DNA from: a bacterium
Lineage (GTDB): Bacteria; Patescibacteriota; Minisyncoccia; Phycocordibacterales; UBA5272
Assembly: GCA_043751115.1 (NCBI GenBank)
Contig: JAYVAE010000040.1
Coordinates: 1 to 56,805 of the forward strand
DNA: 56,805 bases
Direction of reading: 5' to 3'
Part shown: positions 24,749 through 56,741 of the stretch, one piece after another
Numbering within the stretch: the stretch's first letter is position 1
Layout of the letters: each line of letters starts with the position of its first letter
The notes under the pieces: model-generated
Told to the model about the DNA's origin: nothing
Databases searched by the model: none
What the model saw: only the letters and a program-made list of their open reading frames with translations
Position numbers and translations under genes: made by a program

Positions 24749-24756
24749 TATTCACT

Positions 24757-25446: not shown

Positions 25447-25468
25447 TATAGTTATCTGTAATAACACC

Positions 25469-25900
25469 ATGCAATTTAGAGTACCTCAATTCATTGACGT
25501 AGAAGATAAAATAATAGGATCGCTGACGCTGAAGCAATTTTTCTATATTCTTGGAGCTGCTGGAACCGCATTTCTTTTCTTCAAATTCATTCCAATAAAA
25601 ATTGTTGCATTCCTCTTAGCGGCACCAGTGTCAGGATTTTTCCTCGCTCTTGCTTTTGTAAAAATTAATGAAAGACCTTTCATGGATTTTGCTGAGAGTT
25701 TCTTTTCCTACCTTTTAAGGGGTAAAGTTTATGTGTGGCAGCAACCGAAACAGAATATGGCAGATGAAGACTTGGCACCGCTCATACTTGAGACAACAAA
25801 AGACAGTGTCGTTGAAAAAGCAAACAGAAATAAGCTCCATGAAATAGCGTTCGGCCTTGATGTACAAAAAGATAACTCACAGGAAGAGTCGTCGAAATAG
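25469..25900 (+). CDS. PrgI family / VirB3-like small membrane protein
   Basis: MQFRVPQFIDVEDKIIGSLTLKQFFYILGAAG followed by two TM segments matches the PrgI-family pattern. It is positioned directly upstream of VirB4. Confidence 0.6.
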   Translation: MQFRVPQFIDVEDKIIGSLTLKQFFYILGAAGTAFLFFKFIPIKIVAFLLAAPVSGFFLALAFVKINERPFMDFAESFFSYLLRGKVYVWQQPKQNMADEDLAPLILETTKDSVVEKANRNKLHEIAFGLDVQKDNSQEESSK

Positions 25901-25915
25901 GGTATACTCCTTACT

Positions 25916-26536: not shown

Positions 26537-26549
26537 TAAAGTAAAAAAT

Positions 26550-28361: not shown

Positions 28362-29346
28362 TCAACAAAAACTCTTTATAAAAAAAATTTTTTTCTTTTC
28401 ATTATTTTTAATTACTTTTCCTTATGCTTCAGCGCAAGTACGGCTCGATGGGCAAATTGATTTCACCCCAGCAAATCCGAAACCATACGAAACTATTAAG
28501 GTTACTCTAAAAAGTTATTCTTTTGATGTGAACTCTGCAAGTATTTCATGGTATGTTAACAAAGTCCTTGTAGAGAAGGGTGTGGGGGCAAAAAGCTTTT
28601 CTATTGATCTTGGGCCTGCAAATAAAACCTATTTTATTGGCGTAGATGTGGTGAGCGCGGAGGGTCAGTCCTTCCAGGACTCAATTGATATTACACCGCA
28701 CTTTACACCATTACTCACAGAAGGTGCTGAGGGGTATGTTCCGCCGTTTTACGAAGGGCGCGCGCTGTATGGTGAAAGCGCAAAGGTGCGCGTGGTTGCT
28801 TTTCCTATACTTACCGAAGGAGGGGTGTCAATAGGAAAGAAAAAACTCGTTTATCGCTGGTCAGTCAATACTATTCCCTTTCCTGATGCTGGTGGATATG
28901 GAAAAAACGTTTTTATTGTTCGCCAAGATGAGCTCGAGGAGCAAAACAATGTTGATGTGACAGTAACTTCACTTTCAAAAAATAGCTCTCTTGTGGAGAG
29001 GGTATCACTTCGCCCCTATGATATTGAGCCGCTCTTTTACGAATACGATTCCCTTTACGGTGTTAACTTACATAAAGCACATGAAGGTATTCTTTCCATT
29101 TCGAGGCCAACAAAAATTTATTATGCCCCCTACAACTTTGCTTACAGTAAAAGCACCAGCTTTTTTAATTGGTCTTTAAATGGATTACCTATTACCGCGG
29201 ATACAGATTTTTTAGTTAATCTCATTCCTAAAGAAAATAGTATAGGAGTAAGCACGCTTGGTATAACAGCACAGCATACGACAAAGTTGCTTCAGGCGCT
29301 TGATTCTAAGCTCAGTATCAGTTTTGATACAACAAAAAATGAATAA
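28348..29346 (+). CDS. Hypothetical secreted beta-rich protein of the T4SS-like module
   Basis: Signal peptide ...FPYASAQV. Overlaps the VirB4 stop by 14 nt. No family recognised. Confidence 0.6.
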   Translation: MQALNQQKLFIKKIFFFSLFLITFPYASAQVRLDGQIDFTPANPKPYETIKVTLKSYSFDVNSASISWYVNKVLVEKGVGAKSFSIDLGPANKTYFIGVDVVSAEGQSFQDSIDITPHFTPLLTEGAEGYVPPFYEGRALYGESAKVRVVAFPILTEGGVSIGKKKLVYRWSVNTIPFPDAGGYGKNVFIVRQDELEEQNNVDVTVTSLSKNSSLVERVSLRPYDIEPLFYEYDSLYGVNLHKAHEGILSISRPTKIYYAPYNFAYSKSTSFFNWSLNGLPITADTDFLVNLIPKENSIGVSTLGITAQHTTKLLQALDSKLSISFDTTKNE

Positions 29347-30169
29347 ACCTACAGACATTTACTTAACAGAAGAGGTTGGGCAATTTGCTAAAAAGAATCC
29401 AAATTTTAACATAACAGATTTGCAAAATGAGGCTGTCTTTTTTATCATTGGCGTGCTTTTTGTTTTTGCGGCTTACACACTTGCTAAGGCAGGGCTCACC
29501 AAAATGTGGTCAGCAAGTATCGGCTCTCACGCAGAAAGTAATGAAAAAATTAAAGCTTTTGGAGTGTCACTCGTTGTTATAGTAGTAACAATGAGTTTAC
29601 TTTCTTATCTTGGAGTTTTTTCTTCTGACTATTCTTTAAAGCCACTTTCATCGTCTCCCTCATCGCAACCGTCTCTCGGAACGGTTCCAACGCCGGCCCA
29701 CGCTCCCACTGGTTTCAGTGATCAAAATCTCGTAGCCATGCTTGAAACGGAGGCAAAAAATAGAGAGTTTTTAGAAAGTTTTCAAGGTATACAAATAAAC
29801 AAAAAGGCTTGTACTGCTATTGGTCAGACTAATTGTACCTCCGTCGGAGGTATGGGTGCAGGCACACTCGCCATGCTTGAGTCCTTAAAAAGAGTGTGTA
29901 CTTGTAACTTTGTTATAACTGGCGGCACGGAGTGGTGGACACATTCCATAGCGACTCGTCACCGCCCGGGTCAATCAACAGCGGTTGATCTTTCATTTGG
30001 AAATAAAAACTCTGGCGTGAGTAAATTTATTTACGAGTCACCTCTCTTTAAAGGGTCTGATAAGGTGTGGCCCAGATGTTATACCGCTTTTATCTGGTCA
30101 GGATTTTACTTTTGTGATGAAAAAGATAACGGCTCTCAGCCGAGACATTGGCATATACAGCCACTCTAG
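29339..30169 (+). CDS. Two-TM hairpin + S/P linker + putative LAS/M15-like Zn peptidase domain
   Basis: ATG at 29339. Two TM segments (AVFFIIGVLFVFAAYTLA and FGVSLVVIVVTMSLLSYLGVF), a linker SSSPSSQPSLGTVPTPAHAPT, and C-terminal motifs H-x8-D (HRPGQSTAVD) and HWH. Confidence 0.4.
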   Translation: MNKPTDIYLTEEVGQFAKKNPNFNITDLQNEAVFFIIGVLFVFAAYTLAKAGLTKMWSASIGSHAESNEKIKAFGVSLVVIVVTMSLLSYLGVFSSDYSLKPLSSSPSSQPSLGTVPTPAHAPTGFSDQNLVAMLETEAKNREFLESFQGIQINKKACTAIGQTNCTSVGGMGAGTLAMLESLKRVCTCNFVITGGTEWWTHSIATRHRPGQSTAVDLSFGNKNSGVSKFIYESPLFKGSDKVWPRCYTAFIWSGFYFCDEKDNGSQPRHWHIQPL

Positions 30170-30196
30170 TTTTTCTTTTGCTATACTCATAGTTAT

Positions 30197-31489
30197 ATGA
30201 AGAAATTCTTTTATTTCCTTGTTATTCTTCTCGTACTCTCACTTCTCTTTTTTCTCTACTGGTATTTCTCATTTCGAGGTGTTGTGCCAAAAATTCCGTT
30301 TCTTCCGGATAACCCTTTTGGGCTTTTCACAAATGACGTGCAGGGTGGTGGAGGTAATAATGTTAAGGGTGGTAGTGGTGGTAGAAATGATGATGGAGAC
30401 AACAACGGAACAAGCACTATCTCCTACAATGATGAAAAGCTTTTTGAGCTTGTTTCAAAAGAACCAACCGCTGGTTACTCTTTTTCAGACTTCGTAACCG
30501 TTACGTATGGATCCTCTACCGAATCAGGTAAAAAAACTTTTGCTACAACTACTGCCATTTTATATGTCGACAGAGGAACTGGTCACATTTATAAAAAGTT
30601 TATTTTTAGGGGAGGGAAGCCTCAAAAGCTTACCAATACAACTGTTCCTGGAGTATACGACGCTTACTTCTTTGCAAATAATACAAAAGTTCTTATGCGT
30701 TATCTCCGTGAATCCGACAACACAGTTATTTCTTTATACGCTACGCTTCCACCGCTCTCAAGCTCGCTCACACTACCATTACGAGAAACAGTACGTCTTC
30801 CAGAAAATATGGTGAGTGTTGCTGTCTCTCCGAGAACAAGTGATATATATTATCTCGTCAAAACGTCTTCTGGTAGTACCCTTTACCGTATTGGGCCAAA
30901 AGGGGATGAGAAGGTTCGCGATTATGATCTCTCTGAACTATTTCTCACTTTTAACAAAGACGAGCTCATCATTTCGCAAAAGCCTTCCGCTTTTGAAAAA
31001 ACATATTTCTTTAGCGAAAATGAGCTCAGTCTTTATGGGGGAAGAACGGGTCAAAGGGCACTCTTCTCTCAGGTAAATAAAGGTGTTTTCCTTTATTCAG
31101 TGTGGACTGAGTCTGGACTTCAACTTCTCTCGAGTAATCTTTCAGGTCAAAAACCTCATGCTTATGATACTCAAACACTGTCCGATAAATGTGTTTCTTC
31201 TCTTGTCGGTAGTTATTTCTTTTGTTTTGTTCCTAATATTTTACCACTCATTCCTTTTGGGCTTCCTGACGATTGGTATAAGGGGAGAGTCTCTTTCAAT
31301 GACTCTCTCATTGTTCTGGACACCGTAAAGTATGAGGAAGGGGTGCTCTCAAGACTAGAAACTGACATTGGTAGTGAATTCGATACCTTTAAACCACTCA
31401 TGAGTAGTCGTGACACTTATCTCGCTTTTTCAAATAAAATAAATAATGAGCTTTGGGTTGCCCAGCTACAAAAAATAATAGCAAGATAA
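30197..31489 (+). CDS. Hypothetical membrane-anchored protein with Gly-rich spacer
   Basis: N-terminal TM segment FFYFLVILLVLSLLFFLYWYF, then GGGGNNVKGGSGGRNDDGDNNG, then a beta-rich domain of about 340 aa. No family recognised. Confidence 0.6.
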   Translation: MKKFFYFLVILLVLSLLFFLYWYFSFRGVVPKIPFLPDNPFGLFTNDVQGGGGNNVKGGSGGRNDDGDNNGTSTISYNDEKLFELVSKEPTAGYSFSDFVTVTYGSSTESGKKTFATTTAILYVDRGTGHIYKKFIFRGGKPQKLTNTTVPGVYDAYFFANNTKVLMRYLRESDNTVISLYATLPPLSSSLTLPLRETVRLPENMVSVAVSPRTSDIYYLVKTSSGSTLYRIGPKGDEKVRDYDLSELFLTFNKDELIISQKPSAFEKTYFFSENELSLYGGRTGQRALFSQVNKGVFLYSVWTESGLQLLSSNLSGQKPHAYDTQTLSDKCVSSLVGSYFFCFVPNILPLIPFGLPDDWYKGRVSFNDSLIVLDTVKYEEGVLSRLETDIGSEFDTFKPLMSSRDTYLAFSNKINNELWVAQLQKIIAR

Positions 31490-31492
31490 TAT

Positions 31493-32482
31493 ATGGACCC
31501 AACATATTTAATAAATCAAGACAGTCCTCAAGTTTTCGGTATTAGTGGTACAGCAAAATTATCAGAGCTGGCGAACACTGGTTGGACATTTGGTGTTTCT
31601 CTTCTTTTCTTAGCTCTTTTTGTTGCTCTCGTGTGGTCATCTATAGGCATGATACACGCCTCATCAACGGGAAACTTTCATAGTCATTCAAATTATAAGG
31701 AGCTTCTCAGAAAAGTTGTTTACTCAATAATTGCAGTTCTCTTTGTTTCAGTTTTCATATTTTTTGTCATGAAGGGGTTTGAATTTCTTGATTTCGATAA
31801 TAAATCAACTCAAAATACTGGTGCAACGGTCTTAACTCCATCAACTACACCAAACCCAAGTGTGGGGAAAGGAAGACATGGAACAGCAACTCCTACCTGC
31901 ATCCATCCACAGCTGTATAAAGATACTCTTAGAGAAATGGGTGACGGCTTATGTGGTGGAACATTTTGTAAAGGTTTGTGTAATTTTAAGGCTGATATAA
32001 AACAAATCGCAGTAAGTGAAGCGCGCTCCGCTGGTGTTGATCCAAGCATTATCTTAGCTCTCATTTGCCGTGAGTCATCTGGCAATCCTGAGGCAAAAGG
32101 AGTTCACGCTAACAATGGTAATCCTGACTGCGGATTAATGCAAATAAATAGTCAAAGCTGTACAGCAGATATAATGGACCCGACAAACAACGTTCGGGCT
32201 GGTATACAGCTTTATAAGGCAAAACTTGCATCGGTATCTTCATACTCCTATGCAGGGACTAATAAGCCAACACTCGCATTCGCAGCATACAATTGTTGCG
32301 CAAATGGTGATAATCCTAACAGTAAGAGTGCGGATTGTAATCTTGGTACTGGATGGTCTATGGACTTACCTAAATGGGCTTGCCCAATAAACCCTGGAAC
32401 AGGATCCTTTAATATGTGTGCGGTTAAAAACTATACCTGTGACGTGACTGCCTGTGCCAGAGAATATGCCAAAGGTCTATAG
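31493..32482 (+). CDS. Two-TM hairpin + soluble lytic transglycosylase (SLT, VirB1-like) domain
   Basis: Two TM segments (FGVSLLFLALFVALVWSSIGMI and VVYSIIAVLFVSVFIFFVM). SLT motifs ICRESSGNP (catalytic E-S), GLMQIN and AAYNCCANG. Many Cys in the C-terminal half. Confidence 0.75.
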   Translation: MDPTYLINQDSPQVFGISGTAKLSELANTGWTFGVSLLFLALFVALVWSSIGMIHASSTGNFHSHSNYKELLRKVVYSIIAVLFVSVFIFFVMKGFEFLDFDNKSTQNTGATVLTPSTTPNPSVGKGRHGTATPTCIHPQLYKDTLREMGDGLCGGTFCKGLCNFKADIKQIAVSEARSAGVDPSIILALICRESSGNPEAKGVHANNGNPDCGLMQINSQSCTADIMDPTNNVRAGIQLYKAKLASVSSYSYAGTNKPTLAFAAYNCCANGDNPNSKSADCNLGTGWSMDLPKWACPINPGTGSFNMCAVKNYTCDVTACAREYAKGL

Positions 32483-41573: not shown

Positions 41574-41748
41574 AAACTTTCTCTTTGACTGACTCACGGA
41601 CCGTGGCAAGCTGGGGCAGATACATACTCCCTCTATTTGTTGTTTTGCACCCTTGAGAATATAGTAGTGAATACACTCCTTATTCTTGTGGGAAGTGTGA
41701 GGCAATTTTATAACAAGAAAATATACTGGTCAATCAAGGAGAAAGTTT
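41574..41748. repeat. Copy 1 of a 175/216-nt element with 19-bp terminal inverted repeats
   Basis: Ends AAACTTTCTCTTTGACTGA (41574-41592) and TCAATCAAGGAGAAAGTTT (41730-41748). The core is the reverse complement of the core of 46279-46494, with high identity over about 130 nt. Confidence 0.8.
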
Positions 41749-42524: not shown

Positions 42525-43526
42525 TTATGCTTTAGCATCATCCTTAAAAAGAAGTAGTCCTTTTTCTGTCGCTTTTCTACCACGAGGAGTTCTTTCTATT
42601 AAACCTATTTGCATGAGGTATGGCTCAATAACATCTTCGACCGTTGCCTCCTCTTCACCTATTGCGGCTGCGATGGTGGAGAGCCCTACGGGGCCACCAC
42701 CGAACGTTTTAACAAGCGAGTCCATAACCATTTTTTCTGGTATTCCGAGACCAAGATCGTCAATTTCAAGAAGGGAGAGAGCCCTCCCCACAACATCTTT
42801 ATCGATAATTGCCTTATGAACTTGTGCGAAGTCTCGCGCACGCTTTAAATAATAATTAGCAATACGCGGTGTAAATCTTGCTCGCTTAGCGATTTCAAAA
42901 GATGCTTCAGCGGTTATTTCAGCTTTTAAAAGAAGTGAGCTTCGCATTACAATTTCAGAAATTTCACTTTCTGAATAATATTGTAGTCTATAAACTCCGC
43001 CGGAAAACCTGGAGCGAAGGGGGGAAGAGAGAAGGGAGATGCGAGTGGTTGCACCAATTAAAGTAAAAGGAGGGAGGTCGAGCTGTATAGTTCTTGCAGA
43101 AGGGCCTTTACCAATAACAATATCGAGTTTACCTGACTCCATGGCAGGATAAAGCACTTCTTCTATCATTTTGTTCAGTCTATGTATTTCGTCGATAAAG
43201 AGCACGTCTCCAGGAGTGAGATTAGTTAATATTCCCGCGAGATCTCCAACTTTCATTATGGTTGGACCAGAAGATATGCGAAGGTTCGCGCCAAGCTCCT
43301 TTGAGACGAGATGAGCAAGAGTTGTCTTACCAAGCCCTGGCGGGCCATAGAAAAGTACATGTTCAGGAGAAGTTCCGCGCTCTTTAGCGGCGCGGAGTAG
43401 TATATGCAAATTGTTTTTGATCATTTCTTGACCAACATACTCATCAAAAGAAAGAGGTCGTAGTGCTTGGTCTAGTCTGCGAGCATCTTCTTCTGTTTTA
43501 TTTTCGTTATCATTTTTTATAGCCAT
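42525..43526 (-). CDS. ruvB: Holliday junction branch migration ATPase RuvB
   Basis: LFYGPPGLGKTTLA, VLFIDEIHRL, and the sensor region GATTR. The ATG at 43526 is preferred over the TTG at 43565. Confidence 0.92.
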   Translation of the reverse strand: MAIKNDNENKTEEDARRLDQALRPLSFDEYVGQEMIKNNLHILLRAAKERGTSPEHVLFYGPPGLGKTTLAHLVSKELGANLRISSGPTIMKVGDLAGILTNLTPGDVLFIDEIHRLNKMIEEVLYPAMESGKLDIVIGKGPSARTIQLDLPPFTLIGATTRISLLSSPLRSRFSGGVYRLQYYSESEISEIVMRSSLLLKAEITAEASFEIAKRARFTPRIANYYLKRARDFAQVHKAIIDKDVVGRALSLLEIDDLGLGIPEKMVMDSLVKTFGGGPVGLSTIAAAIGEEEATVEDVIEPYLMQIGLIERTPRGRKATEKGLLLFKDDAKA

Positions 43527-43558
43527 ATAGTAAGGTGTAGGAGAAAATAAGAGGGTGG

Positions 43559-43587
43559 TTGACAAAAGTTTTTGTATATGCTATAAT
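43559..43587 (+). promoter_or_regulatory. Consensus sigma70 promoter (TTGACA-N17-TATAAT) with no obvious gene
   Basis: TTGACA at 43559-43564 and TATAAT at 43582-43587. It points into an ~780-nt ORF-poor region (43588-44366). Confidence 0.5.
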
Positions 43588-44366
43588 GTTTATCTAGGTT
43601 TACTCGTTCGTTTTAACTATAGTTTTAAAAACTAAGAGAAAAAATCTAGAGAAAATTCAGAAAAATTGTTTCTTTGTAAAATCTATACGTCTCTAAGCAA
43701 TCAGGAGCTCGTCTCCCATCTTCTATTTGAAAGGACGGTCTGGTAGCCTTTGCTTGCAAAGGAACTCTGTACCCATCCTTATTAAGGAAGTTTCTTCACC
43801 AAGGGGTTGTTTAGAGGCGCATACATTTTACTCTTTTTGGGCCATAAAAAGAGCAATCTTTTTCGTTAAGTATTCCCATTTTTTGTCATCGTACTTCTGT
43901 GTACGTTTCCTCAAAATGAAATGCCTTGCCTCAAATCTCATCTTATATCCCTCAGGCACATGAGTCACCCCTCCAAAACACCGCTCTTAAATCAAAAGTG
44001 TTTGATTTAAGAAATTTACCACCATTTGCATTTTTAGTATTCATATACTTGGATGAGATTCGAGGACGAGACACCATTCGAGCGTCTTGGACGTAGACTC
44101 TCCTTTTTAAGGAGGTGAGCTTACTAGCACAGTGACAAAAAATAAATAATTCTTGAATCACCAGACGATGAATGAGTACATGAATGTCTTGGACGCTGTC
44201 TTGGACAAAAACAATATCGCTAAATCTCCTCGAATGCAATCAAAATTTATTAAATCTGAATGAGATTTGAGAAAAAATTCCTCTTTATGAAGAGATGTAC
44301 TTAGTTGTACATTGATAAAGAAATGAGAGAGTTTTACAAAAAAGCTCGTCAGATTTAAGAACTCTT

Positions 44367-46067
44367 CTATTCGTCGCCGTAAACGTCGACAGACCGAGTT
44401 AACTCCTCAAGAGATGTAATCCCTTGAAGCACTTTCAGTATACCATCTTCTTTAAGTGTGGGTATTCCTTGTTTATCAGCCTCTTTTCGTATTTCTCTCT
44501 CGCTGGGATTACTCGCAATGAGCTTTTCTATGTCGGCACTCATAGAAATTGCTTCATAAATACCGGTGCGTCCTTTATACCCATGTGTGCAAAATTCACA
44601 ACCAACAGGTCTCCATAATGTATAGCGGAGTGCCGGTTTGAAGCCAAGCATTCCCTCATCTTTTTTATTGGTGAGCATAATGCCGAGTATAGTTGTGATA
44701 ATGCGAGACTCTTTTTCTGTCGAAGTATTACCTTCCTTACAATGCGGGCAAAGTTTTCGTACCAGTCTTTGAGCGAGCGCAAGCGTGAGTGCAGACCCTA
44801 TAACTTTAGGATTAACCTTAAGATCAAGAAGTCTGGGGATGGTGCCAGCCGCGGTATTGGTGTGTAGTGTCGAGAAGACAAGGTGACCGGTGAGAGCAGC
44901 GTTAATGGCAACTCCCGCCGTTTCTTCATCGCGGATTTCTCCCACCATGATTACATCAGGGTCCTGGCGAAGTGCGGCGCGAAGTCCAGAAAGGAAAGTA
45001 TAATTCTTTGCTTGATCTACTTGCGTCTGACTAATGCCCGATATGTGATACTCAATAGGGTCTTCAATGGTGATGACTTTGTTTTCGCTCGTGTGTACTG
45101 ACTGAACGAAAGCGTATAATGTCGTTGATTTTCCAGAGCCGGTCGGGCCGGTAGTGAGTATAATGCCATGAGGCTTAGCGAGCGCGCGCTCTATATGCTG
45201 AAAGAGCACCTCACTCATACCCATTTCTTCAAGATGAGCTATAACATTTCTCGGATCGAGTAATCTCATGACAAATCCATCGCCGTAATTCGAAGGAATC
45301 ACCGACACACGTATTTCTAAAGAAACATCTTTAAAATCAAGGGAAAATCTACCGTCCTGCGCCTCATGACTTTGTGATATTTTAAGTCCAGCAAGGAGCT
45401 TCAGCCTACTGGCTATTTGTTTACCTACTTTATCCGTGAGTACAGTGATGTCATGGAGCACGCCATCTACTCGATAACGAATTTTTGTTTGAGACTCTTC
45501 AGATTCAATATGTATATCAGACGCTCGTAGAGCAACTGCCCCGCTAAACATAGTCTCAATAAGTTTTGTCGTTCTATGTGCGGTGTCCGCAGACCTCACA
45601 ATGGCAAAAGCTTTCGCCACATCGTCGAGCGTCTTGATACTATTTGCAAGTTCTACCGTTTCTATTTTTGAAAGAGATATTTCACCAGAAGAAACTTGAT
45701 TGATCATTTTTGCTTCATCGTAGCGAGCGTACACATGCTCAAGGGATGCGTGTGATATGAGGTAAAGAACAACATTAATGCCGCGTGTCTCTAAATTTTT
45801 TAGCAGTATCTTTGTCATGTCTCCTTCGGGGGAGAGGACACCCACGTGGAGATTTTGTCCAATAATTTTAAAGGGAGCAAATGACGCTTTCCTGGCATCT
45901 TCTTTTGTCACAAAGCGCATCGCGTCTCCCTCCGGAGCGACAGAGGTTAGGTCAATGTACGGGAGTCCATGCTGGTCTGAGAGAGTTTGCATTAAGCGTT
46001 CCTCCTCTTTTTTGTGAAGGTCACCGAGTCGCTTCAGGGCATTTGTTTCTTGATCCGTTACTAACAT
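44367..46067 (-). CDS. pilB: GspE/PilB family type IV pilus / type II secretion ATPase
   Basis: Walker A TGPTGSGKSTTLYA, Asp box, Walker B DPDVIMVGEIRD, His box FSTLHTN, and a tetra-Cys motif CPHC...CEFC. Confidence 0.9.
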   Translation of the reverse strand: MLVTDQETNALKRLGDLHKKEEERLMQTLSDQHGLPYIDLTSVAPEGDAMRFVTKEDARKASFAPFKIIGQNLHVGVLSPEGDMTKILLKNLETRGINVVLYLISHASLEHVYARYDEAKMINQVSSGEISLSKIETVELANSIKTLDDVAKAFAIVRSADTAHRTTKLIETMFSGAVALRASDIHIESEESQTKIRYRVDGVLHDITVLTDKVGKQIASRLKLLAGLKISQSHEAQDGRFSLDFKDVSLEIRVSVIPSNYGDGFVMRLLDPRNVIAHLEEMGMSEVLFQHIERALAKPHGIILTTGPTGSGKSTTLYAFVQSVHTSENKVITIEDPIEYHISGISQTQVDQAKNYTFLSGLRAALRQDPDVIMVGEIRDEETAGVAINAALTGHLVFSTLHTNTAAGTIPRLLDLKVNPKVIGSALTLALAQRLVRKLCPHCKEGNTSTEKESRIITTILGIMLTNKKDEGMLGFKPALRYTLWRPVGCEFCTHGYKGRTGIYEAISMSADIEKLIASNPSEREIRKEADKQGIPTLKEDGILKVLQGITSLEELTRSVDVYGDE

Positions 46068-46278
46068 GAAGGAAGTATAACAGATAGAGGCGGGCGTTAA
46101 TGGTAATTAGTAATTTGTTAACAGTAAATAGTTCTAGTTTAGTTATAAGTTATACGTACTAAGTTCTAAGTTAGGGTTTCGTGTCCGTATTGTCATCCCT
46201 GAGCTAGCAAGCGAACGTCTTGGACGCGAATTGATCTGGGATCCAGTATTTATTTGCATTTGAAGTATTTTTCTTTTC

Positions 46279-46494
46279 AAACTTTCTCCTTGACTGAGCG
46301 TCGAGAAGCTCTGCTTCGAAGAGTTAGAAATTGACCACAATTTCTAACAAGACTAATAAGAAAACGCACCTTACTTCCCAAAAGAATAAGGAGTGTACTC
46401 ACGACTATATTCTCAAGGGTGCAGAACAACTACCAAAGGGAGTATGTGTCTGCCCCAGCTACCCGCTTCCGAGAGTCAGTCAAAGAGAAAGTTT
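46279..46494. repeat. Copy 2 (inverted orientation) of the 175/216-nt element
   Basis: Ends AAACTTTCTCCTTGACTGA (46279-46297) and TCAGTCAAAGAGAAAGTTT (46476-46494). Relative to copy 1 it carries an extra segment of about 40 nt (around 46298-46335). Confidence 0.8.
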
Positions 46495-46591
46495 CTAAGG
46501 TGGACACAGTATTCAAACAAATACCATCTTTTTTTCGAAAATAGTCCCCATTCTTGTGACTTGTGGCTTAAGTCTTTCTTCTTGTAAACCC

Positions 46592-46619
46592 TTGACAAAA
46601 TGCCACTTTCGTGTATACT
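46592..46619 (+). promoter_or_regulatory. Promoter TTGACA-N16-TATACT for the 46728 gene
   Basis: Hexamers at 46592-46597 and 46614-46619. The leader contains an 11-bp hairpin GTTTTAGATGC/GCATCTAAAAC, and an AGGAG Shine-Dalgarno sequence lies 6 nt before the ATG. Confidence 0.55.
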
Positions 46620-46727
46620 ATAAGGTAGCGTTTTAGATGCCCAAAAAGCATCTAAAACACAAAAAGTACCTTGTTTTACAAACCTACCGCGAAATCTGAC
46701 GATTTTGCTCAACCCCAGGAGATTTCC

Positions 46728-47306
46728 ATGATCGCACGTTTTACCGCTCTTTTTATTGTCGCTCTGCTGTTGTTCACGTCACCAGCCTCCGCCCAAACCT
46801 GTAACCGCATCATCGATCAGCGTACTGGTCAGGTGATCAAGGTTGAATGCTTTGACTCACACGGTCGAATCATCAACAACGGGCAAGTATTTGTCGGCGG
46901 ACAACAGTTTGCCATCAACAACGGCCAGTTTACTGGTTGTGCTTCACGCTTCTCAATCAGTATTGGAGGTCGGGATGGCCGGGTTGATTTTGGCACCTGC
47001 CTTGCAGAGATGCAGAACAATGTGTCGGTTCGTACTGTGTATACACAGCCCAACCAATCTGTGCGACAGCAAAGTCAGGCCGGCGGCGATAACTTGACGT
47101 GCAATAACTGCACGGTCAATGTCGGTACCGGCAGTAATGCTGGCGGAGCTGGTAACAGCCCTGGATCGTTTACCGTTAAGGGAGACAACTGCCCTTCCGA
47201 GATGAAGGCATACAATCGCACCCAAGACGGGCTCACTCGGCGTGTGTGCATCCGCTTCGTTCCTGGCAGCAACGCCGTCGCACAGGAGTTCGACGAGCCA
47301 AAATGA
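46728..47306 (+). CDS. GC-rich secreted Cys-containing protein, unknown family
   Basis: MIARFTALFIVALLLFTSPASA signal peptide; 192 aa; Gly/Asn/Gln-rich with 8 Cys. The upstream 19 codons in the ORF track are rejected in favour of the start backed by a Shine-Dalgarno sequence. Confidence 0.7.
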   Translation: MIARFTALFIVALLLFTSPASAQTCNRIIDQRTGQVIKVECFDSHGRIINNGQVFVGGQQFAINNGQFTGCASRFSISIGGRDGRVDFGTCLAEMQNNVSVRTVYTQPNQSVRQQSQAGGDNLTCNNCTVNVGTGSNAGGAGNSPGSFTVKGDNCPSEMKAYNRTQDGLTRRVCIRFVPGSNAVAQEFDEPK

Positions 47307-47387
47307 GGGGCTCATCCCCCTCAACAACCCCGCGCTAATACCGTGGGGCTTGTCATTTTTTATAGTAGAAATGCGGTTTGTATAGTC

Positions 47388-47416
47388 TTGACATTTTTAA
47401 TGCCATGTCTTAGTGT
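47388..47416 (+). promoter_or_regulatory. Promoter TTGACA-N17-TAGTGT for the 47530 gene
   Basis: Hexamers at 47388-47393 and 47411-47416, with the same -10 hexamer as the hfq promoter. The leader is about 110 nt. Confidence 0.5.
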
Positions 47417-47529
47417 AAGAGTGTGGCGAGCTTTGTTAACACACCGTAAAGAAAAAGCTCGTATTTGTATGAGGCTGGTTATCCCGCCACTTCTTGATTT
47501 TCAACCCCCATTTTTCAGCGGAGAGATTT

Positions 47530-47949
47530 ATGAAACTCAATGAATTCCCGAGGCCAGAAGAGCTGCGCGAAAGGTCGCACCTTGCGACCCTGGCTGCCAA
47601 GGCTGTGCAGATTTGGCACAACGCCGAAGCCGATGCTACCGAGGCCAAAAGGGTTGCTGACGTGGCAGCCGAAGCCGCGGCAACAGCGCTTGAAGAGGCT
47701 CGCGAAGCCTTTGCTCTCGTTGTCGCTCCTTTTCGGTGCGATGTTCCGCAGTCGATCTCGGCAACACCTACTGGCCAGGCAATCACCACGGTCGGAGGAG
47801 CGCCGCTGGACACCGGAACGGGGGTGCCGGAGGCGGCTACCGCCACTCCAGGGTCGCACACTTTCCACGTCCCTCCACCTGGCCCACCAGCGAACCTTCT
47901 GAAGCAGGCTCCGCTGGGGACACCGGCCAGGAACGGTGCTGGGAGGTAG
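47530..47949 (+). CDS. GC-rich Ala/Pro-rich protein, paralogous N-terminus to the 48182 gene
   Basis: MKLNEFPRPEELRERSHLATLAAKAV...; GGAGAG lies 4 nt before the ATG; 139 aa; no signal peptide or TM segment. Confidence 0.6.
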   Translation: MKLNEFPRPEELRERSHLATLAAKAVQIWHNAEADATEAKRVADVAAEAAATALEEAREAFALVVAPFRCDVPQSISATPTGQAITTVGGAPLDTGTGVPEAATATPGSHTFHVPPPGPPANLLKQAPLGTPARNGAGR

Positions 47950-47993
47950 TCCACAAGAAGGACTCCTTTGAACCTCGAAGGAGCCCTCGAAAC

Positions 47994-48027
47994 CCTCGCC
48001 AAGCGCGAGGTTTTCTTATTATTTTTT
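47994..48027 (+). terminator. Intrinsic terminator after the 47530 gene
   Basis: CCTCGC-caagc-GCGAGG followed by TTTTCTTATTATTTTTT. Confidence 0.55.
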
Positions 48028-48053
48028 ATATTAAGTCAAGACTTTGTAAAGTA

Positions 48054-48081
48054 TTGACAAAAGTATATTTTCGTGTATAAT
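48054..48081 (+). promoter_or_regulatory. Promoter TTGACA-N16-TATAAT for the 48182 gene
   Basis: Hexamers at 48054-48059 and 48076-48081. Confidence 0.55.
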
Positions 48082-48181
48082 GTTAGACATAGCGAGCTTT
48101 GTAAGTAAAAAAGCCCGTATCTGTTCGGGGTTTGGCGATTCTGCCAGCCCCATTGAGTCCCAATTTACCAAGGAGATTTTC

Positions 48182-49261
48182 ATGGACAAAGCATTTCCTT
48201 CCTCTGACGAACTCCGTCAGCGTGCGAAAGATGCTGAAGCGGCGGCGAAAGCCGTCGAAGAAGCCAACGCCGCTGATGCTCGTAGCAATACAGCATCTCA
48301 GGTAGCAGCAAATGCAGCTGCGGAGGCGGAAGCAGCAAAAGCCGCAGCACGAGCTGCCGTCGGCGTTGCTTCCCCAGCTCCACCCCCACCTCTTGCGCCT
48401 GTCCTTCCGACACTGCCTCCAGGGCAACCGCCCAACCCTCCCGTCCCTCCGTCTGCACCAGCTCTGCCTCCGAATCCTTCGGGTGGCGGTGCTCACGCAA
48501 GCGGCTGGGTGGGCTTTGCCGTAGGGGTAGCCGCCTTCCTGGTGGCACTCGTTCTCGGCGTTACCGCCATTGTCTTGCAGAACGGTAAGGCGAGTGAGGG
48601 ATTTGTTCAGGCGCTTCATGCGTCTGCGCAATCGGCAATCGCTAGCCTGCGCGGTACGGTAGACAAGGCAGTCGCTGACACGGCGACCAACACCGCAGCA
48701 ATTACTGCGGTCAAGGACGACGTCGCCAACAACGTCAAGCCCGCTGTGAAGCGCGCCCAAGACACCGCGGACACAGCCCTGTCCGCATCGGCGAGCTGTA
48801 CCACTTGCCCGAGCAATGGTTCGGCAAGCGGAACCAGTGGTGGTAGGTCTGGTGGCAACACTGGAACTCCACCGCGAAAGACCGCTGATGCAGGTCAGGT
48901 GCGTGCACCGAGTCGGCAGACCAGCACGCCCGTGGTCACAATGAACCAGGCCAAGCGAGAAATTCGCACAGACGGCAGGTGCGTCCTCGAGCTCATCGAG
49001 CCGAACGGTGCAAAGGCTTATGTCCGCTTGGACACAGCCAAGGCGAACGGCAACCTCACCGCAGCCAAGGTCGACAACAAGATAGGGGAGTGGAATCGGT
49101 CCAACTTCTTGTCTTACGTCGGCGACGGCCGTCAGACTGTCCGTCTTGATGGCAACTCAAGCTGTCAAGCCGCGATTGCGGCGCTGACCTCGTCTCGGGC
49201 ATTCCCGTGGACGAGCACCCGAATCGGTGTAAACGGTTGCACCCCCAACGGGCAAGTCTGA
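48182..49261 (+). CDS. GC-rich single-pass membrane protein: Ala-rich helix, Pro-rich spacer, TM, extracytoplasmic domain
   Basis: MDKAFPSSDELRQRAKDAEAAAKAV..., PAPPPPLAPVLPTLPPGQPPNPPVPPSAPALPPNPSGG, and a TM segment WVGFAVGVAAFLVALVLGVTAIVL. AAGGAG lies 6 nt before the ATG. 38/60 GC on line 48301-48360. Confidence 0.7.
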   Translation: MDKAFPSSDELRQRAKDAEAAAKAVEEANAADARSNTASQVAANAAAEAEAAKAAARAAVGVASPAPPPPLAPVLPTLPPGQPPNPPVPPSAPALPPNPSGGGAHASGWVGFAVGVAAFLVALVLGVTAIVLQNGKASEGFVQALHASAQSAIASLRGTVDKAVADTATNTAAITAVKDDVANNVKPAVKRAQDTADTALSASASCTTCPSNGSASGTSGGRSGGNTGTPPRKTADAGQVRAPSRQTSTPVVTMNQAKREIRTDGRCVLELIEPNGAKAYVRLDTAKANGNLTAAKVDNKIGEWNRSNFLSYVGDGRQTVRLDGNSSCQAAIAALTSSRAFPWTSTRIGVNGCTPNGQV

Positions 49262-49282
49262 ATCTCAGGCGACCCCTCTGCA

Positions 49283-49311
49283 AGAGCCCCCTCAAAAGGG
49301 CTCTTTGTTTT
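49283..49311 (+). terminator. Intrinsic terminator after the 48182 gene
   Basis: AGAGCCC-cctcaaaa-GGGCTCT followed by TTGTTTTG. Confidence 0.5.
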
Positions 49312-49313
49312 GA

Positions 49314-49342
49314 TTGACAAATGTATTATATTGTGATATAAT
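49314..49342 (+). promoter_or_regulatory. Promoter TTGACA-N17-TATAAT for the 49382 gene
   Basis: Hexamers at 49314-49319 and 49337-49342. Confidence 0.55.
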
Positions 49343-49381
49343 AGTAAAACATCACCCTATTAGTAGGTAAGTAGAAACTTT

Positions 49382-52087
49382 ATGAAAAATATTAAAAAAA
49401 TCTTCGCAATTCTTGCAATGGTTACCATTGCTTCATCTCCTGCGCTTTCTTTTGCGCAAAGTTATGATGACCTTTCTGGTACCTCATTCGGAAGCACAGG
49501 ATCAGGATATTCTTGGTCTGATTTCAATCCGAGCACGCCAGTCAATTATAATGACTATAGTGATAATAATTTTGACTCAAACACAAACAACTCTGGTTAC
49601 TCATGGACCGACTTCAATCCGTACACTCCAGTAAGCTATAGCGATCTAAATAACACTAACTTCTACGACTCCTCAACTAATTATGGAAACGTCTCTTGTG
49701 TTGGGTGTGATACAACTTCTTGGCAAAATCAGAATCCTGTATATACACCAATCACCACCTCTCCAGTTACATACACACCGATTTCAACTTCACCAATCAC
49801 CTACACTCCAATAACTACAACCCCTTGGTACACTCCTTCACCTACATATGCTCCGGTAACAACAGTTATTGACTATTACACTACTCCGAGCACCAATTGG
49901 TATACACAACCGACATGGACTGCACCGGTTTACCAGACCATTACTTGTAACAACTCTGCCGGATACTACCTTTCTGGAAATACTTGCATCAAACAATGTA
50001 CAAATGGTCAGACTGTTGTGTTTCCAAATAATTGTCCTACTCCTGGTCCAGTGGGTCCACCAACTCCCGTTCCCACCTGTAATACCGCAAATGGCTACTA
50101 TTTCTCAAACGGTCAATGTGTTAAAAATTGTCCAAACAATGTCATCGTGACTCAGCCGAATCAGTGTCCAATAGTTACTCCGCCAGTTATTTGTGACAAT
50201 GCAAATGGATACTATCTCTCAGGAAATACTTGTATCAAACAATGTACCGATGGGCAAACTGTTGTGTTCCCAAATAATTGTCCTGCACCAGCTCCAGTCT
50301 GTGATATGGTAAATGGTTATTATTATAACGGGTCAGTATGCATAAAGCAGTGCCCAAACAGAACAAGTGTTATGTACCCAAGTCAGTGTCCAGCACAACC
50401 TCCGATATCCTGTGATACTGCAAATGGTTTTTATCTACAAAATGGCTCTTGTATCAAGAGCTGTCCAAACAATGTCATCGTGACTCAACCAAACGCTTGT
50501 CCATTCATACCTCCAGTAGTTACTTGTGATAACAATAATGGTTACTATTACAATGGTTCAGTCTGTATCAAATTCTGCCAGTCTATTAACGGTTACGTTA
50601 CCTTCCCAAATAACTGCCCGAATCCAACACCCACACCGCCACCAGTACCAACTTGTGACACAATGAACGGTTTCTATTTCTCAAACGGTCAATGTGTTAA
50701 AAATTGTCCAAACAATGTCGTCGTGACTCAGCCGAATCAGTGTCCATTCATACCACCAGTAGTTACTTGTGACAATGCAAATGGCTATTACTACAACCTC
50801 ACTACTTGTGTGAAGTTCTGCCAGTCTATTAACGGTTACGTTACCTTCCCAAATAACTGCCCAACACCTCAGCCAATTCCTTATCCAGTACCGGTGCCAG
50901 TTCCAACACAGACGCAAGTTTGTTTTGATGGATCTGTTATCTCTGCGTACGCTGTATGTCCCAGCCCGTACAAAGTCTGTCCTGATGGAAACCTCGTCAG
51001 TAGAAATGGTTATTGTCCAGTTATTCAAGCACCAATAGTAATACCTCCTCCAGCTATCAACAGTGTGATCACAAGTATTCCTACACAAATAGCAAATACA
51101 AGTGCGCGCTGTAACGGTATTGGTCTCATTCCAAATAATACGCCAAGTGTCGCATGGTTTGAGTATGGAACCAATCCTACGCTCGGACTTAAAACCGCAA
51201 TCGCCAATATCGGATCAGCGAACATAAGTCCGTTTACTAACCTCCTCACCAACCTAAAGCCAAGCACAGAATATTTTTGTAGGGCGGTTATGGCTAATGA
51301 GAGGGGAACAGTAAGAGGAGAGGTTGTCAGTTTCACCACCAAGAAAACCGCTGTTTACTACCCAGTAGCTACGAAGACCGTGGTGACAAAAAAGACAAAA
51401 GCGGTGAAAGTGGTAATTCCTGTCAAGAAAGAAATCATCTGTTCTGATGGAAGTATTATCGAGGGAGCCGGTGAAGCAAATGGAAAGGATGGCATCTCTA
51501 TGCTTGAAATGGGACAAAAAGCATTATCACTTAGTTTTGTTAAAACAAAGGGAGATGTTTCTCCAAACTCACTTGTTTCATACTTCGTAACATTTAAAAA
51601 TGACAGTATCTCAAATCTCGTGAACACGAAACTCACCGTTCTTCTTCCAGAAGAAATGACACTCCTTAAAGCAAGTCTTGGTTCTTATGATCCAAGAACT
51701 CGCGAGCTAACTCTGGCATATCCAGTCATGACTCCTGGCCAAAGTGGTTCACTTGAGCTTGAAATTGGTGTTGCAAAGGATGCTCTTATCGGTAAATCTG
51801 TTGCGGTGCAAGCAATCGTCTCCTATACGCTCCCTCCAAAGACAGCAAGTGGAAAAGCTCTCACTGATGAAGTGATAGCGTACGCAGTCTCAACCATCGT
51901 CTCCACACCACTTTCTGCTGTGCCAGCTCCCGTTAAAGAAGAGATTAAGAAAAGTGAAAGTAGTAAGAATTCTTTCCTTCCGAATACTGTTGTAGAATGG
52001 GTTGTACTCTTTGCAATATTACTCATTATCATCGTGCTCGTTCGAAGTATTAGAGAGTCCTACAAAGGAAAAGAAACGCATCACTAA
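49382..52087 (+). CDS. Large repetitive surface protein (4-Cys modules, Fn3-like and DUF11-like domains, C-terminal LPxT-like anchor)
   Basis: Signal peptide ...SFAQS. Eight modules of the form C-x4-G-[YF]-Y-x4/5-C-x3-C-x10-12-C-P. An AWFEYGTNP...STEYFCRAV Fn3-like domain. The DUF11-like motif VSYFVTFKNDSISNLVNTKLTVLLPEEMTLLKAS. The C-terminus has LPNTV, a TM segment and a basic tail. Confidence 0.8.
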   Translation: MKNIKKIFAILAMVTIASSPALSFAQSYDDLSGTSFGSTGSGYSWSDFNPSTPVNYNDYSDNNFDSNTNNSGYSWTDFNPYTPVSYSDLNNTNFYDSSTNYGNVSCVGCDTTSWQNQNPVYTPITTSPVTYTPISTSPITYTPITTTPWYTPSPTYAPVTTVIDYYTTPSTNWYTQPTWTAPVYQTITCNNSAGYYLSGNTCIKQCTNGQTVVFPNNCPTPGPVGPPTPVPTCNTANGYYFSNGQCVKNCPNNVIVTQPNQCPIVTPPVICDNANGYYLSGNTCIKQCTDGQTVVFPNNCPAPAPVCDMVNGYYYNGSVCIKQCPNRTSVMYPSQCPAQPPISCDTANGFYLQNGSCIKSCPNNVIVTQPNACPFIPPVVTCDNNNGYYYNGSVCIKFCQSINGYVTFPNNCPNPTPTPPPVPTCDTMNGFYFSNGQCVKNCPNNVVVTQPNQCPFIPPVVTCDNANGYYYNLTTCVKFCQSINGYVTFPNNCPTPQPIPYPVPVPVPTQTQVCFDGSVISAYAVCPSPYKVCPDGNLVSRNGYCPVIQAPIVIPPPAINSVITSIPTQIANTSARCNGIGLIPNNTPSVAWFEYGTNPTLGLKTAIANIGSANISPFTNLLTNLKPSTEYFCRAVMANERGTVRGEVVSFTTKKTAVYYPVATKTVVTKKTKAVKVVIPVKKEIICSDGSIIEGAGEANGKDGISMLEMGQKALSLSFVKTKGDVSPNSLVSYFVTFKNDSISNLVNTKLTVLLPEEMTLLKASLGSYDPRTRELTLAYPVMTPGQSGSLELEIGVAKDALIGKSVAVQAIVSYTLPPKTASGKALTDEVIAYAVSTIVSTPLSAVPAPVKEEIKKSESSKNSFLPNTVVEWVVLFAILLIIIVLVRSIRESYKGKETHH
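49946..50863 (+). repeat. Intragenic tandem array encoding eight ~37-45-aa cysteine modules
   Basis: DNA-level near-identity between modules. For example, 50098-50170 vs 50674-50746 (73 nt, 1 mismatch), and the stretch TTCTGCCAGTCTATTAACGGTTACGTTACCTTCCCAAATAACTGCCC occurs twice (around 50575 and around 50816). Confidence 0.85.
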
Positions 52088-56458: not shown

Positions 56459-56741
56459 GTGATTGCCGACAACTTCTCATGGTGTTCGAAGTTGTAAACC
56501 GGCAATTCTTTCGATCCTGAGCTAGCAACGATGAGTGCCCACACGAACATCTTGGATGCTGTCTTGGACCTGACGCATGTGAAGCGGTTCACGTGCTCTG
56601 GGGATACAGCAGGGATCTTCGATAAGTAAATTTTTGTCGTCACAAAAATTTCTCGCCGACCGCTCCTCGTAGTTTTGTTTGCTAACAAAACTATACTCCG
56701 GACATTCGATCCCTGACGAAAGCCAAGCAGTTGGCTTTCTC

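Follow-up and report, generated by a model that had tools for sequence, protein, structure and literature searches.

A GC-rich gene trio beside a giant surface-protein gene in a patescibacterial genome, read as a clade-specific cell-envelope module

The stretch of DNA analysed here (the window) covers 56,805 nt of contig JAYVAE010000040.1, a genome fragment with 40.9% GC whose gene content is typical of Patescibacteria, also called candidate phyla radiation (CPR). Between pilB (44367-46067, minus strand) and the gene of a giant surface protein of 901 amino acids (aa) it carries three consecutive genes, here A, B and C (Table 1), which a first-pass annotation had described as GC-rich, individually promoted and terminated cassettes that reflect either a specific acquisition route or a distinct expression class. 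On balance, and with a little better than even confidence, we read this trio as an old, vertically inherited, clade-specific cell-envelope module of uncultivated Patescibacteria and not as a set of imported cassettes. The evidence consists of the anatomy of the three units, the synteny of the locus, a new domain family in C, the paralogy of B and C, a GC offset that recurs in each lineage and an allelic tract between strains. Few CPR bacteria have been cultivated; they are believed to spend their lives attached to other cells, by means of proteins that are largely unknown, and a three-part envelope module offers a concrete target for localisation and binding studies.

The locus is conserved in one clade of Patescibacteria

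Related loci and contigs are denoted by L numbers, and seven contexts were read besides the window (L002, L016, L019, L020, L017, L015 and L012); L020 is the sole locus from the metagenome scan with a second alignment. In all seven, a gene of the C family lies directly upstream of a giant surface-protein gene (Table 1), and the layout of a small secreted protein, a C-family protein and a giant surface protein is found in eight lineages of one patescibacterial clade. The identity of PilB among these genomes ranges from 83% down to 54%, and the identities of the C domain group the genomes in roughly the same way. In L012 the triad is located beside rplE, without pilB, which indicates that the invariant link is that to the surface protein and not that to pilB. 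The closest PilB proteins in the species-level genome collection are 45-48% identical and belong to Saccharibacteria, Nomurabacteria, Taylorbacteria and unclassified Patescibacteria; a scan of that collection detected no C domain near pilB in these distant CPR.

The first slot of the layout is always occupied by a small protein, secreted or lipidated, that is rich in Gly, Gln and Cys. In distant relatives this protein is a glycine-zipper lipoprotein (Rick_17kDa_Anti / Gly-zipper_YMGG), encoded at 381-935 in L012 and at 1944-2366 in L019.

The surface protein of the window has a signal peptide, a Ser/Thr/Asn/Tyr-rich region, repeated Cys modules ('CDNANGYYLSGNTCIKQC...', a weak DUF5874 match) and DUF11, and it ends in an FLPNT motif followed by a transmembrane (TM) segment and a basic tail. 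Across the loci, the surface proteins share the signal peptide, an N-terminal '...SAQSYDD...' and a C-terminal [FM][LM]PN[ST] with TM helix and basic tail. A sortase-type sorting signal was considered for this C-terminus; no NCBIfam match was obtained at E <= 0.1, and it remains a motif. The first-pass annotation had called a role at the cell surface plausible from the position of the genes, and this proposal is now better grounded in the signal peptide or anchor that accompanies the C domain and in the linkage to the surface-protein gene: the trio probably functions at the cell surface, tied to the adjacent surface protein.

Protein C carries the founding member of a new domain family

The product of gene C is composed of an Ala-rich helix (residues 8-60), a Pro-rich spacer (61-105), a TM helix (106-134 in the AlphaFold2 (AF2) model, with a hydrophobic core at residues 114-132), outer helices (139-204), a CxxC motif (206-209), a Gly/Ser/Thr/Pro linker and the C-terminal domain. 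This layout bears out the original description of a bitopic protein with an Ala-rich helix, a Pro spacer, a TM segment and an outer part. A word-indexed search of 5.8 billion proteins returned C itself and two relatives, 87% and 48% identical, and a profile built from the last 133 residues of C retrieved 33 clusters at E <= 1e-3 among 1.84 billion cluster representatives. In all the family members listed, the domain is at or near the C-terminus with a CxxC upstream, and the residues R, C, V, G, C and C are invariant. There is one domain copy per locus, and between the window and L002 the ratio of nonsynonymous to synonymous substitution rates (dN/dS) of the domain is 0.07.

No Pfam match was found for A, B or C at E <= 0.01, or for ten members of the family, and NCBIfam and PHROGs gave only sub-threshold noise for the three proteins. 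The family profile had a best E of 0.35 against the PDB, which is noise, and neither a tblastn search for C in phages nor a scan of viral contigs for the domain pattern gave any match. Hence the trio lies outside the families known, as had been stated (Pfam, NCBIfam, PHROGs, the PDB and Rfam gave no match), and the remote-homology comparison that the first-pass annotation had proposed led to no described family and to a domain family found only within the clade. By these profile comparisons the C-terminal domain founds an undescribed family, here 'RTDGRCV', whose members combine a C-terminal domain of ~110 aa, the invariant residues, a predicted extracytoplasmic location and a gene upstream of a surface-protein gene.

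The topology of C may be deduced from its relatives. The N-terminus of most family members is hydrophobic and resembles a signal peptide, that of others forms an anchor, and a few members (P0023, P0024) share the full plan of C, i.e., Ala-rich N-terminal helix, low-complexity spacer, TM segment, outer helices, CxxC, linker and domain. Wherever a signal peptide or an anchor is readable the domain is predicted to be extracytoplasmic, so that the Ala-rich helix and the Pro-rich spacer of C would lie in the cytoplasm. TonB and the anti-sigma factors of the RskA/RsdA type are also bitopic proteins with Pro-rich spacers, and C resembles them in its single TM helix, proline-rich spacer and globular outer C-terminal domain. 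However, the Pro-rich spacer of C is predicted to be cytoplasmic, no TonB_C, zf-HC2 or RskA match was found, there is no adjacent gene for an extracytoplasmic function (ECF) sigma factor, and most members of the C family are plain secreted proteins with a signal peptide.

The three proteins were also considered as type IV pilins or minor pilins, and this assignment was rejected: they have no class III signal (G/[FM]xxxE) and no pilin Pfam match, the signal of A is of the Sec type and ends in ASA/QT, B has no signal, and the hydrophobic segment of C is at 106-134.

Gene A encodes a secreted protein and gene B a paralogue of the N-terminus of C

Protein A is rich in Gly, Asn, Gln and Val, and the sequence confirms the secreted, Gly/Asn/Gln-rich protein with 8 Cys that had been annotated. 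Its relatives among 5.8e9 proteins form two clusters, its own and that of P0005 (65% identical by BLASTP), and orthologues are present in L002 (48% identical in the alignment) and L021.

Protein B consists of 21% Ala and 11% Pro and has no hydrophobic segment, in agreement with its annotation as an Ala/Pro-rich, cytoplasmic-looking protein. When the first 36 residues of B and C were compared as profiles, hhalign gave a probability of 93% and an E of 3.7e-7 over 36 columns. The promoters and leaders of the two genes align as well, with TTGTAAAG..TTGAC, GCGAGCTTT...AAAAAGC.CGTAT.TG and GGC.ATCCTGCCA in common, and the terminator-promoter junctions are likewise repeated (repeats D1 and D2). These alignments identify B as a tandem paralogue of the predicted cytoplasmic N-terminus of C, promoter and leader included. 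Orthologous B and C leaders are closer to each other than paralogous ones, and the duplication is therefore older than the split between the window and L002. The dN/dS of B is 0.61 against L004 and 0.33 against L002, which denotes purifying selection, and its frame stays open; throughout the trio, the plus-strand frame is the sole one that is open across all orthologues.

Each gene has its own promoter, hairpin leader and terminator

The region of the trio contains 8 promoter-like sites, compared with 2.3 +/- 1.4 in shuffled sequences. The near-consensus promoters that had been annotated for all three genes stand for A and C, whereas that of B combines a perfect -35 with a weak -10 hexamer (Table 1). 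The promoter of A is homologous to that of C (a 43-nt repeat, 74% identical), and its sequence 'CTTGACAAAA...TTTCGTGTATACT' precedes the first locus gene in L002, L016 and L019 as well. The promoter of B, which is homologous to that of C, is kept in L004 and L021.

As annotated, all three genes have leaders of about 100 nt (~95-110 nt) with a hairpin, followed by a strong Shine-Dalgarno sequence (SD) 4-6 nt from the start codon (AGGAG-6-ATG in A, GGAGAG-4-ATG in B and AAGGAG-6-ATG in C). The leader of A (-23.6 kcal/mol, z = -4.6) has a perfect 11-bp hairpin (46630-46640/46648-46658) that begins four nt into the predicted transcript, and a second one before the SD (46689-46696/46701-46708); both are kept in L002, with 5 pairs preserved through changes on both sides. 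The leader of B is homologous to that of C, and both comprise a 9-bp 5' hairpin (P1) and a second hairpin (P2). In the B/C leader alignment 91% of the cells are paired, compared with 43-51% when the partners are slid, and 4 pairs show compensatory changes, through which the 5' hairpin of B is kept; the L021 lineage gives one further compensatory variant.

No Rfam match was found in the leaders of the window at the gathering threshold, and relaxing the cut-off to E <= 1 over 43400-49450 gave none either. When the B/C leader was turned into a covariance model, only the six training sequences were recovered in 192 kb, with nothing upstream of the other GC-rich single genes of the window (hfq and the genes at 6393 and 16096) or in distant relatives. 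Since the model finds its training copies alone, the B/C leader appears as a lineage-specific element that is not shared with those three genes. The first-pass annotation had grouped hfq, 6393 and 16096 with the trio by cassette design and had suggested a search for a shared promoter or leader motif; none exists, and the upstream sequences are unrelated.

A terminator of its own was found after each gene, as had been reported. The whole design (strong promoter, leader with a 5' hairpin, SD and own terminator) is kept at the locus in all relatives, and in the distant ones a hairpin follows right after the -10 hexamer (by eye) in a sequence that is unrelated. The surface-protein gene also has a 12/12, TG-extended promoter, and its GC content is ordinary, so that the expression design is not tied to GC-richness. 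Thus, the proposal of a distinct expression class holds as far as the design is conserved at the locus, but not in its coupling to high GC.

Stem-loops at the 5' terminus are known to stabilise mRNAs such as those of E. coli ompA and B. subtilis aprE by shielding them from 5'-end-dependent decay, and mRNAs that combine a 5' hairpin, a strong SD and a terminator of their own are known to be long-lived and well translated. By analogy, the 5' hairpins of the trio may protect the mRNA in the same way. Like the ompA 5' untranslated region and the aprE leader, the leaders of the trio are long, have a strong SD and a hairpin a few nt from the predicted 5' end, precede genes of envelope or secreted proteins and keep their hairpins through compensatory changes. 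Unlike them, they have no sequence or Rfam relationship to a described leader, the overall fold of the B leader is unexceptional, and the starts are predicted.

A diverged tract lies between identical flanks in closely related strains

Contig L004 is identical to the window over 46326-47300 (with one difference) and again over 48851-50127, and the pilB region from the same sample (L025) is 100% identical to the window. Between these flanks, across 47310-48850, L004 differs by 2 to 42% per 50-nt bin, about 17% overall. The tract takes in the terminator of A, all of the B unit and C over its first two thirds, and in round terms the alleles of the window and of strains L004 and L023 are about 20% apart. 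The same diverged block is seen in L023, a 57-kb ENA contig, with a background of 0-3% in most 100-nt bins over 41.3-47.3 kb. Identical flanks around a diverged segment indicate a tract of recombination or allelic replacement, and show directly that homologous recombination occurs in natural populations of the lineage.

In the tract the synonymous divergence (dS) is 0.23-0.92 and dN/dS is 0.2-0.6, values that mark the alleles as old and give no hint of positive selection. Part of the B promoter-leader segment of the other allele is closer to the L021 lineage, whose pilB DNA is 82% identical, which suggests import across species-level lineages.

Pneumococcal pspA, neisserial opa and pil and streptococcal emm are mosaic surface loci kept by homologous recombination. 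The present locus resembles them in the sharply bounded diverged segment between identical flanks, in encoding envelope proteins and in the likeness of part of the other allele to a different species-level lineage. It differs from them in that the parts that vary are the whole of B, the predicted cytoplasmic paralogue, and C from its cytoplasmic part through the TM segment to the stalk, while the exposed domain is invariant, in that there is neither a sign of positive selection nor a silent donor copy, and in that the host is an uncultivated CPR bacterium.

The GC excess recurs in every lineage

The GC content is 0.564 over 46728-49261, compared with 0.400 upstream and 0.413 downstream, and the count of 38 G or C in 60 nt that had been given for 48301-48360 is exact. 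With GC of 0.53-0.63 and GC at third codon positions (GC3) of 0.57-0.61, the three genes are markedly GC-rich, as annotated, and far above the 41 other open reading frames (ORFs) of the window (mean GC3 0.344, sd 0.052, maximum 0.446; z of the trio 4.4-5.2). The codon AAC accounts for 71-76% of Asn in the trio and 27% in the background, AAG for 73% of Lys in C (background 33%) and GTC for 53% of Val in C (background 16%). The same amino acids are thus written with other codons, so that the bias is not merely one of Ala/Pro/Gly content; GC is raised at all three codon positions, including the first and second (GC1 and GC2).

In every lineage, the GC3 of the C-family gene exceeds that of the adjoining surface-protein gene, by 0.13-0.32 (Table 1). 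The gene in the first slot is usually raised too (0.70 in L019, 0.70 in L021, and 0.46 in L020, where pilB has 0.23). Between the window and L002, dS is above 2, i.e., saturated, for pilB, the surface-protein gene and the trio, and is saturated for polA as well; the other lineages are far more distant. With dS saturated, a single ancient transfer would have ameliorated, and an offset that rides on the background of each genome points to a continuing force that maintains the GC bias. The anomaly of the trio is hence older than the species and seems to be actively maintained.

We favour GC-biased gene conversion at a recombination hotspot as a candidate cause. In many bacteria, genes that recombine tend towards a higher GC3, and GC-biased gene conversion has been named as the cause (Lassalle et al. 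2015, PMC4450053). The trio resembles such genes in its local rise of GC3, in the direct evidence for recombination at the locus and in the independence of this rise from the codon usage of ribosomal protein genes. It differs in that the correlations in that study are genome-wide, while here an excess of +0.13 to +0.32 persists at one small locus across lineages between which dS is saturated, a size and a persistence that exceed what the study describes. If the tract is linked to the GC hump, the locus would be among the clearest single-locus cases of biased gene conversion in bacteria.

Selection could also keep the GC excess in place of recombination bias, the module being otherwise as we read it. 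It might act on a stable or less RNase-sensitive mRNA, on the codons of abundant envelope proteins or on an Ala/Pro/Gly composition with linked codon effects. The strong promoters and hairpin-first leaders do suggest high expression, C-ending codons are strongly preferred in the two-fold families (Asn, Asp, His and Cys), as translational optimisation with GNN anticodons would predict, the raised GC1 and GC2 fit Ala/Pro/Gly-rich products, and the offset is stable between lineages. However, the ribosomal protein genes are not enriched (GC3 0.36 in rpsO and 0.28 in rplE), the equally well-promoted surface-protein gene next to the trio has an ordinary GC3 (0.35), and G-ending codons are increased too (Lys AAG, Gln CAG and Leu CTG), which is not the usual pattern of translational selection in AT-rich genomes. 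Ordinary translational selection is therefore unlikely, and we grant selection in its wider sense a minor but appreciable chance.

Table 1. Features of the A/B/C locus in the window, and gene order and GC3 of the related loci.
Feature	Position	Strand	Description
Promoter of A	46592-46619	+	TTGACA-16-TATACT, 11/12
Leader of A	46626-46727	+	~100 nt; SD AGGAG at 46717-46721
Gene A	46728-47306	+	192 aa, Sec-type signal peptide (...SPASA/QT), 8 Cys, predicted secreted; GC 0.530, GC3 0.570
Terminator region of A	47304-47361	+	two GC-rich hairpins, then T-run; site 47328-47348; z = -4.1
Promoter of B	47388-47416	+	TTGACA (47388-47393)-17-TAGTGT; -10 matches 3/6
Leader of B	47424-47529	+	P1 47426-47434/47454-47462, then P2, SD GGAGAG
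Gene B	47530-47949	+	139 aa, Ala/Pro-rich, without signal peptide or TM segment; GC 0.633, GC3 0.614
Terminator region of B	47957-48030	+	hairpin 47994-48010 and T-run, second hairpin before; z = -5.1
Promoter of C	48054-48081	+	TTGACA-16-TATAAT, 12/12
Leader of C	48090-48181	+	P1 at 5' end, P2, SD AAGGAG; -26.8 kcal/mol, z = -2.4
Gene C	48182-49261	+	359 aa, predicted bitopic membrane protein, 5 Cys; GC 0.614, GC3 0.589
C-terminal domain of C	48929-49258	+	~110 aa, RTDGRCV...YVRLDT...YVG...TV.L...C..A..A...R.F.WT..R.G...C
Terminator of C	49282-49311	+	8-bp stem (site 49282-49305) and T-run; z = -1.0
Promoter of surface-protein gene	49314-49342	+	12/12, TG-extended
Surface-protein gene	49382-52087	+	901 aa; directly downstream of C
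Allelic/recombination tract	47310-48850	.	terminator of A, whole B unit, C as far as the linker that precedes the C-terminal domain
Window			GC3: C-family 0.59, surface-protein gene 0.35
L002			pilB / A' / B' / C' / surface protein / tsaE / polA; GC3: C-family 0.69, surface-protein gene 0.41
L016			ruvB / pilB / lipoprotein / C-family / surface protein / tsaE / polA; GC3: C-family 0.60, surface-protein gene 0.37
L019			order as L016; GC3: C-family 0.63, surface-protein gene 0.33
L020			order as L016; GC3: C-family 0.51, surface-protein gene 0.19
L017			C-family then surface protein; GC3: C-family 0.52, surface-protein gene 0.33
L012			rplE / glycine-zipper lipoprotein / C-family / surface protein; GC3: C-family 0.40, surface-protein gene 0.27
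L015			C-family then surface protein; GC3: C-family 0.41, surface-protein gene 0.23

Import of the trio from elsewhere is improbable

The composition and codon usage of the trio deviate from those of the host genome, as in a genomic island, and the trio might be an island acquired horizontally from a GC-rich donor, e.g., a host bacterium, that was inserted between pilB and the surface-protein gene and kept the donor composition. Codon usage is indeed atypical at all three positions, and the same genome carries other GC-rich single genes, among them an hfq that is clearly of the proteobacterial type. Patescibacteria reportedly undergo frequent horizontal gene transfer (Gios et al. 2025, PMC12455944), and the trio resembles the islands and single-gene transfers described there in consisting of compositionally atypical CPR genes, a description that hfq also fits; it differs from them in being fixed in place across the clade, with no homologue outside. 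No homologue of A or C outside the clade was found in 5.8e9 proteins or in 1.84e9 representatives, and the search for a donor lineage by best matches, which had been suggested, gave only clade-internal matches for both. All seven other contexts are the same CPR locus, syntenic over a PilB identity of 54-83%, and no patchy presence or empty site was seen among them. The locus spans lineages down to 54% PilB identity and the two closest species are already saturated in dS, so that an old transfer should have ameliorated, whereas the GC3 offset tracks the background of each genome. The promoters are of the native type and homologous among relatives. As for the hallmarks of insertion, there is no tRNA in the window and no att-like or flanking repeat at the units, and the nearest integrase-family gene (4296-5282) is ~41 kb off. 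For a recent event the island is largely refuted, and on the whole we give it a slim chance. The acquisition route of the first-pass annotation is not upheld, given a locus that is syntenic over a deep clade, the lack of outside homologues, the origin of B and C by tandem duplication and the absence of insertion hallmarks. A strong compositional anomaly in CPR need not mean horizontal transfer, and detectors based on composition would misclassify this locus.

Mobile cassettes of an integron-like or other site-specific system, which would also have placed hfq, 6393 and 16096, would account for the modular layout, for the similar terminator-promoter junctions (D1 and D2) and for the several GC-rich single-gene units scattered in the window. 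The likeness of the junctions is, however, explained by the duplication of B and C and the homology of the A and C promoters, both of which are kept in relatives. No common motif that resembles a recombination site was found at the units, no integrase gene adjoins them, their position does not vary across the clade, and the upstream sequences of hfq, 6393 and 16096 are unrelated. No attC-type repeats with an adjacent intI were found at the units, where the hairpins after the genes are GC-rich stems with T-runs, i.e., terminators; nor are these promoterless cassettes read from a common cassette promoter (Pc), for each unit has its own. We consider a cassette system very improbable.

Contig L001 is 100% identical to the window over 46467-49607, as are L025 and L026 over 43668-46342 and 43668-46227. 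An assembly artefact or contamination, in which foreign GC-rich reads were joined into a CPR contig, has the composition jump as its sole support and practically no chance of being true, since the junctions are exact in independent assemblies (L001, L004, L023, L025, L026 and L002, a contig of an NCBI metagenome-assembled genome) and the GC-rich ORFs are driven by AT-rich promoters conserved with relatives, so that the misassembly named by the first-pass annotation as a refutation is ruled out.

The GC-rich genes of the window are not one class, because hfq appears to be an import and the trio does not. The hfq gene (3834-4070, within the window feature 3834-4112, minus strand) has a GC3 of 0.71, a Pfam match at 4.5e-26 and its own TTGACA...TATAGT promoter, and its best non-self relatives are 74-78% identical, the named ones being assigned to Pseudomonadota, Burkholderiales and Polynucleobacter. 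To our knowledge Hfq is unusual for CPR, and by its relatives this gene is probably a true horizontal import. It adjoins the gene at 4296-5282, which encodes a XerC/D-type recombinase.

The other two GC-rich units are both on the minus strand. The gene at 6393-7100 (GC3 0.64) encodes a secreted protein whose tail, 'LPGSLPLAAIALVALVILRRRG', resembles exosortase/PEP-CTERM sorting signals below threshold (NCBIfam E 0.012-0.07), and no exosortase was found among the part of the window ORFs that was scanned. The gene at 16096-16524 (GC3 0.65) encodes a membrane protein of 142 aa with a single EamA domain (a half-transporter), and has a TTGACT-16-TAAAAT promoter and its own terminator.

Proposed organisation and function of the module

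In the envelope module as we read it, the conserved unit is a small secreted protein or lipoprotein, then the C-family protein, then the giant anchored surface protein. In the subclade of the window, a tandem duplication copied the C gene along with its promoter and leader, and the upstream copy became B. Protein C would be anchored by its single TM helix, with the Ala-rich helix and the Pro-rich spacer inside and the helical stalk, CxxC, linker and domain outside. The domain of ~110 aa most likely binds a conserved partner, and from the invariant gene linkage the first guess would be the adjacent surface protein or the cell wall. Protein A may be a secreted, disulfide-rich companion, and B a soluble cytoplasmic paralogue that could pair with the N-terminal helix of C. 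Each gene would be transcribed alone, from a sigma-70-type promoter into an mRNA with a 5' hairpin, a strong SD and its own terminator. The GC excess persists at the locus in every lineage and would be maintained by GC-biased gene conversion at a recombination hotspot, where the A gene and the C-terminal domain may serve as conserved recombination arms for the exchange of alleles that run from B to the N-terminal part of C.

Several points weigh against this reading. The lineages sampled are few, and several of the contigs are short. The first-slot proteins of the distant relatives L016 and L012 have no detectable homology to A, so that the slot is conserved in kind and not in sequence. The AF2 models have a predicted local distance difference test (pLDDT) score of 43.6 for A, from a 2-sequence alignment, which makes the model unusable, and of 39.0 for C, from a 3-sequence alignment, which makes it usable for the outline of secondary structure alone. 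The transcript starts are predicted from promoter position alone, and the total fold of the B leader (z = -0.5) is no stabler than that of shuffled sequences. The tract, with its dN/dS of 0.2-0.6, carries no signal of positive selection. Finally, a GC3 excess of 0.13-0.32 is large for gene conversion in bacteria, the AT-rich promoters inside the tract are not GC-enriched, and, the substitutions being unpolarised, biased gene conversion is a cause that we infer.

In a bolder version, to which we assign a low though not trivial likelihood, the locus would be a long-lived recombination hotspot with exchange of B-C alleles between species, gene conversion would have raised the GC3 hump of +0.13 to +0.32, and the RTDGRCV domain would dock or assemble a surface protein that holds the host. 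If this is true, GC humps could serve as a marker, readable from sequence, of the host-interaction loci of CPR.

Other features of the window

The window also contains dnaA and dnaN (both by eye), and the genes of a class A penicillin-binding protein, tyrS, ruvC, ruvB, pilB, tsaE and polA, together with genes of a type IV secretion system of the Gram-positive type. The latter belong to a run of genes for a secretion or conjugation apparatus at 18817-32482 (plus strand), which includes a PrgI-like protein (25418-25900), a VirB4/TraG P-loop ATPase (26505-28361), an SLT transglycosylase (31493-32482) and several large secreted proteins without an assigned family.

Between ruvB and pilB there is a gap of 800 nt (43566-44366) without a credible gene, in which the minus strand has only broken ORFs and no Rfam match was obtained. 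A perfect TTGACA-17-TATAAT promoter at 43559-43587 is directed into it, and in L016 and L020 the gap is just ~260-425 nt long. It could hold an RNA gene or a decayed insertion.

The motif GCGAACGTCTTGGACGC is dispersed at 46211-46227, 44078-44094, 44180-44196 and 56543-56559, i.e., 4 sites at <= 3 mismatches, compared with 0.08 expected. L002 and L021 keep the copy in the pilB-A spacer, and the motif may bind a protein or represent a small repeat element.

In the same spacer, a 19-nt inverted repeat (46279-46297 / 46476-46494) flanks a block of 66 nt with 95% identity to the L021 lineage, while the spacer around this block is poorly conserved, and contigs L004 and L025 break there. Part of this element (46373-46496) recurs at 41574-41696 with ~87% identity, as deduced from cross-matches of the near-identical strain contigs L023 and L024. 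By its repeat structure, the element at 46279-46494 appears to be a small RNA or similar to a miniature inverted-repeat transposable element (MITE).

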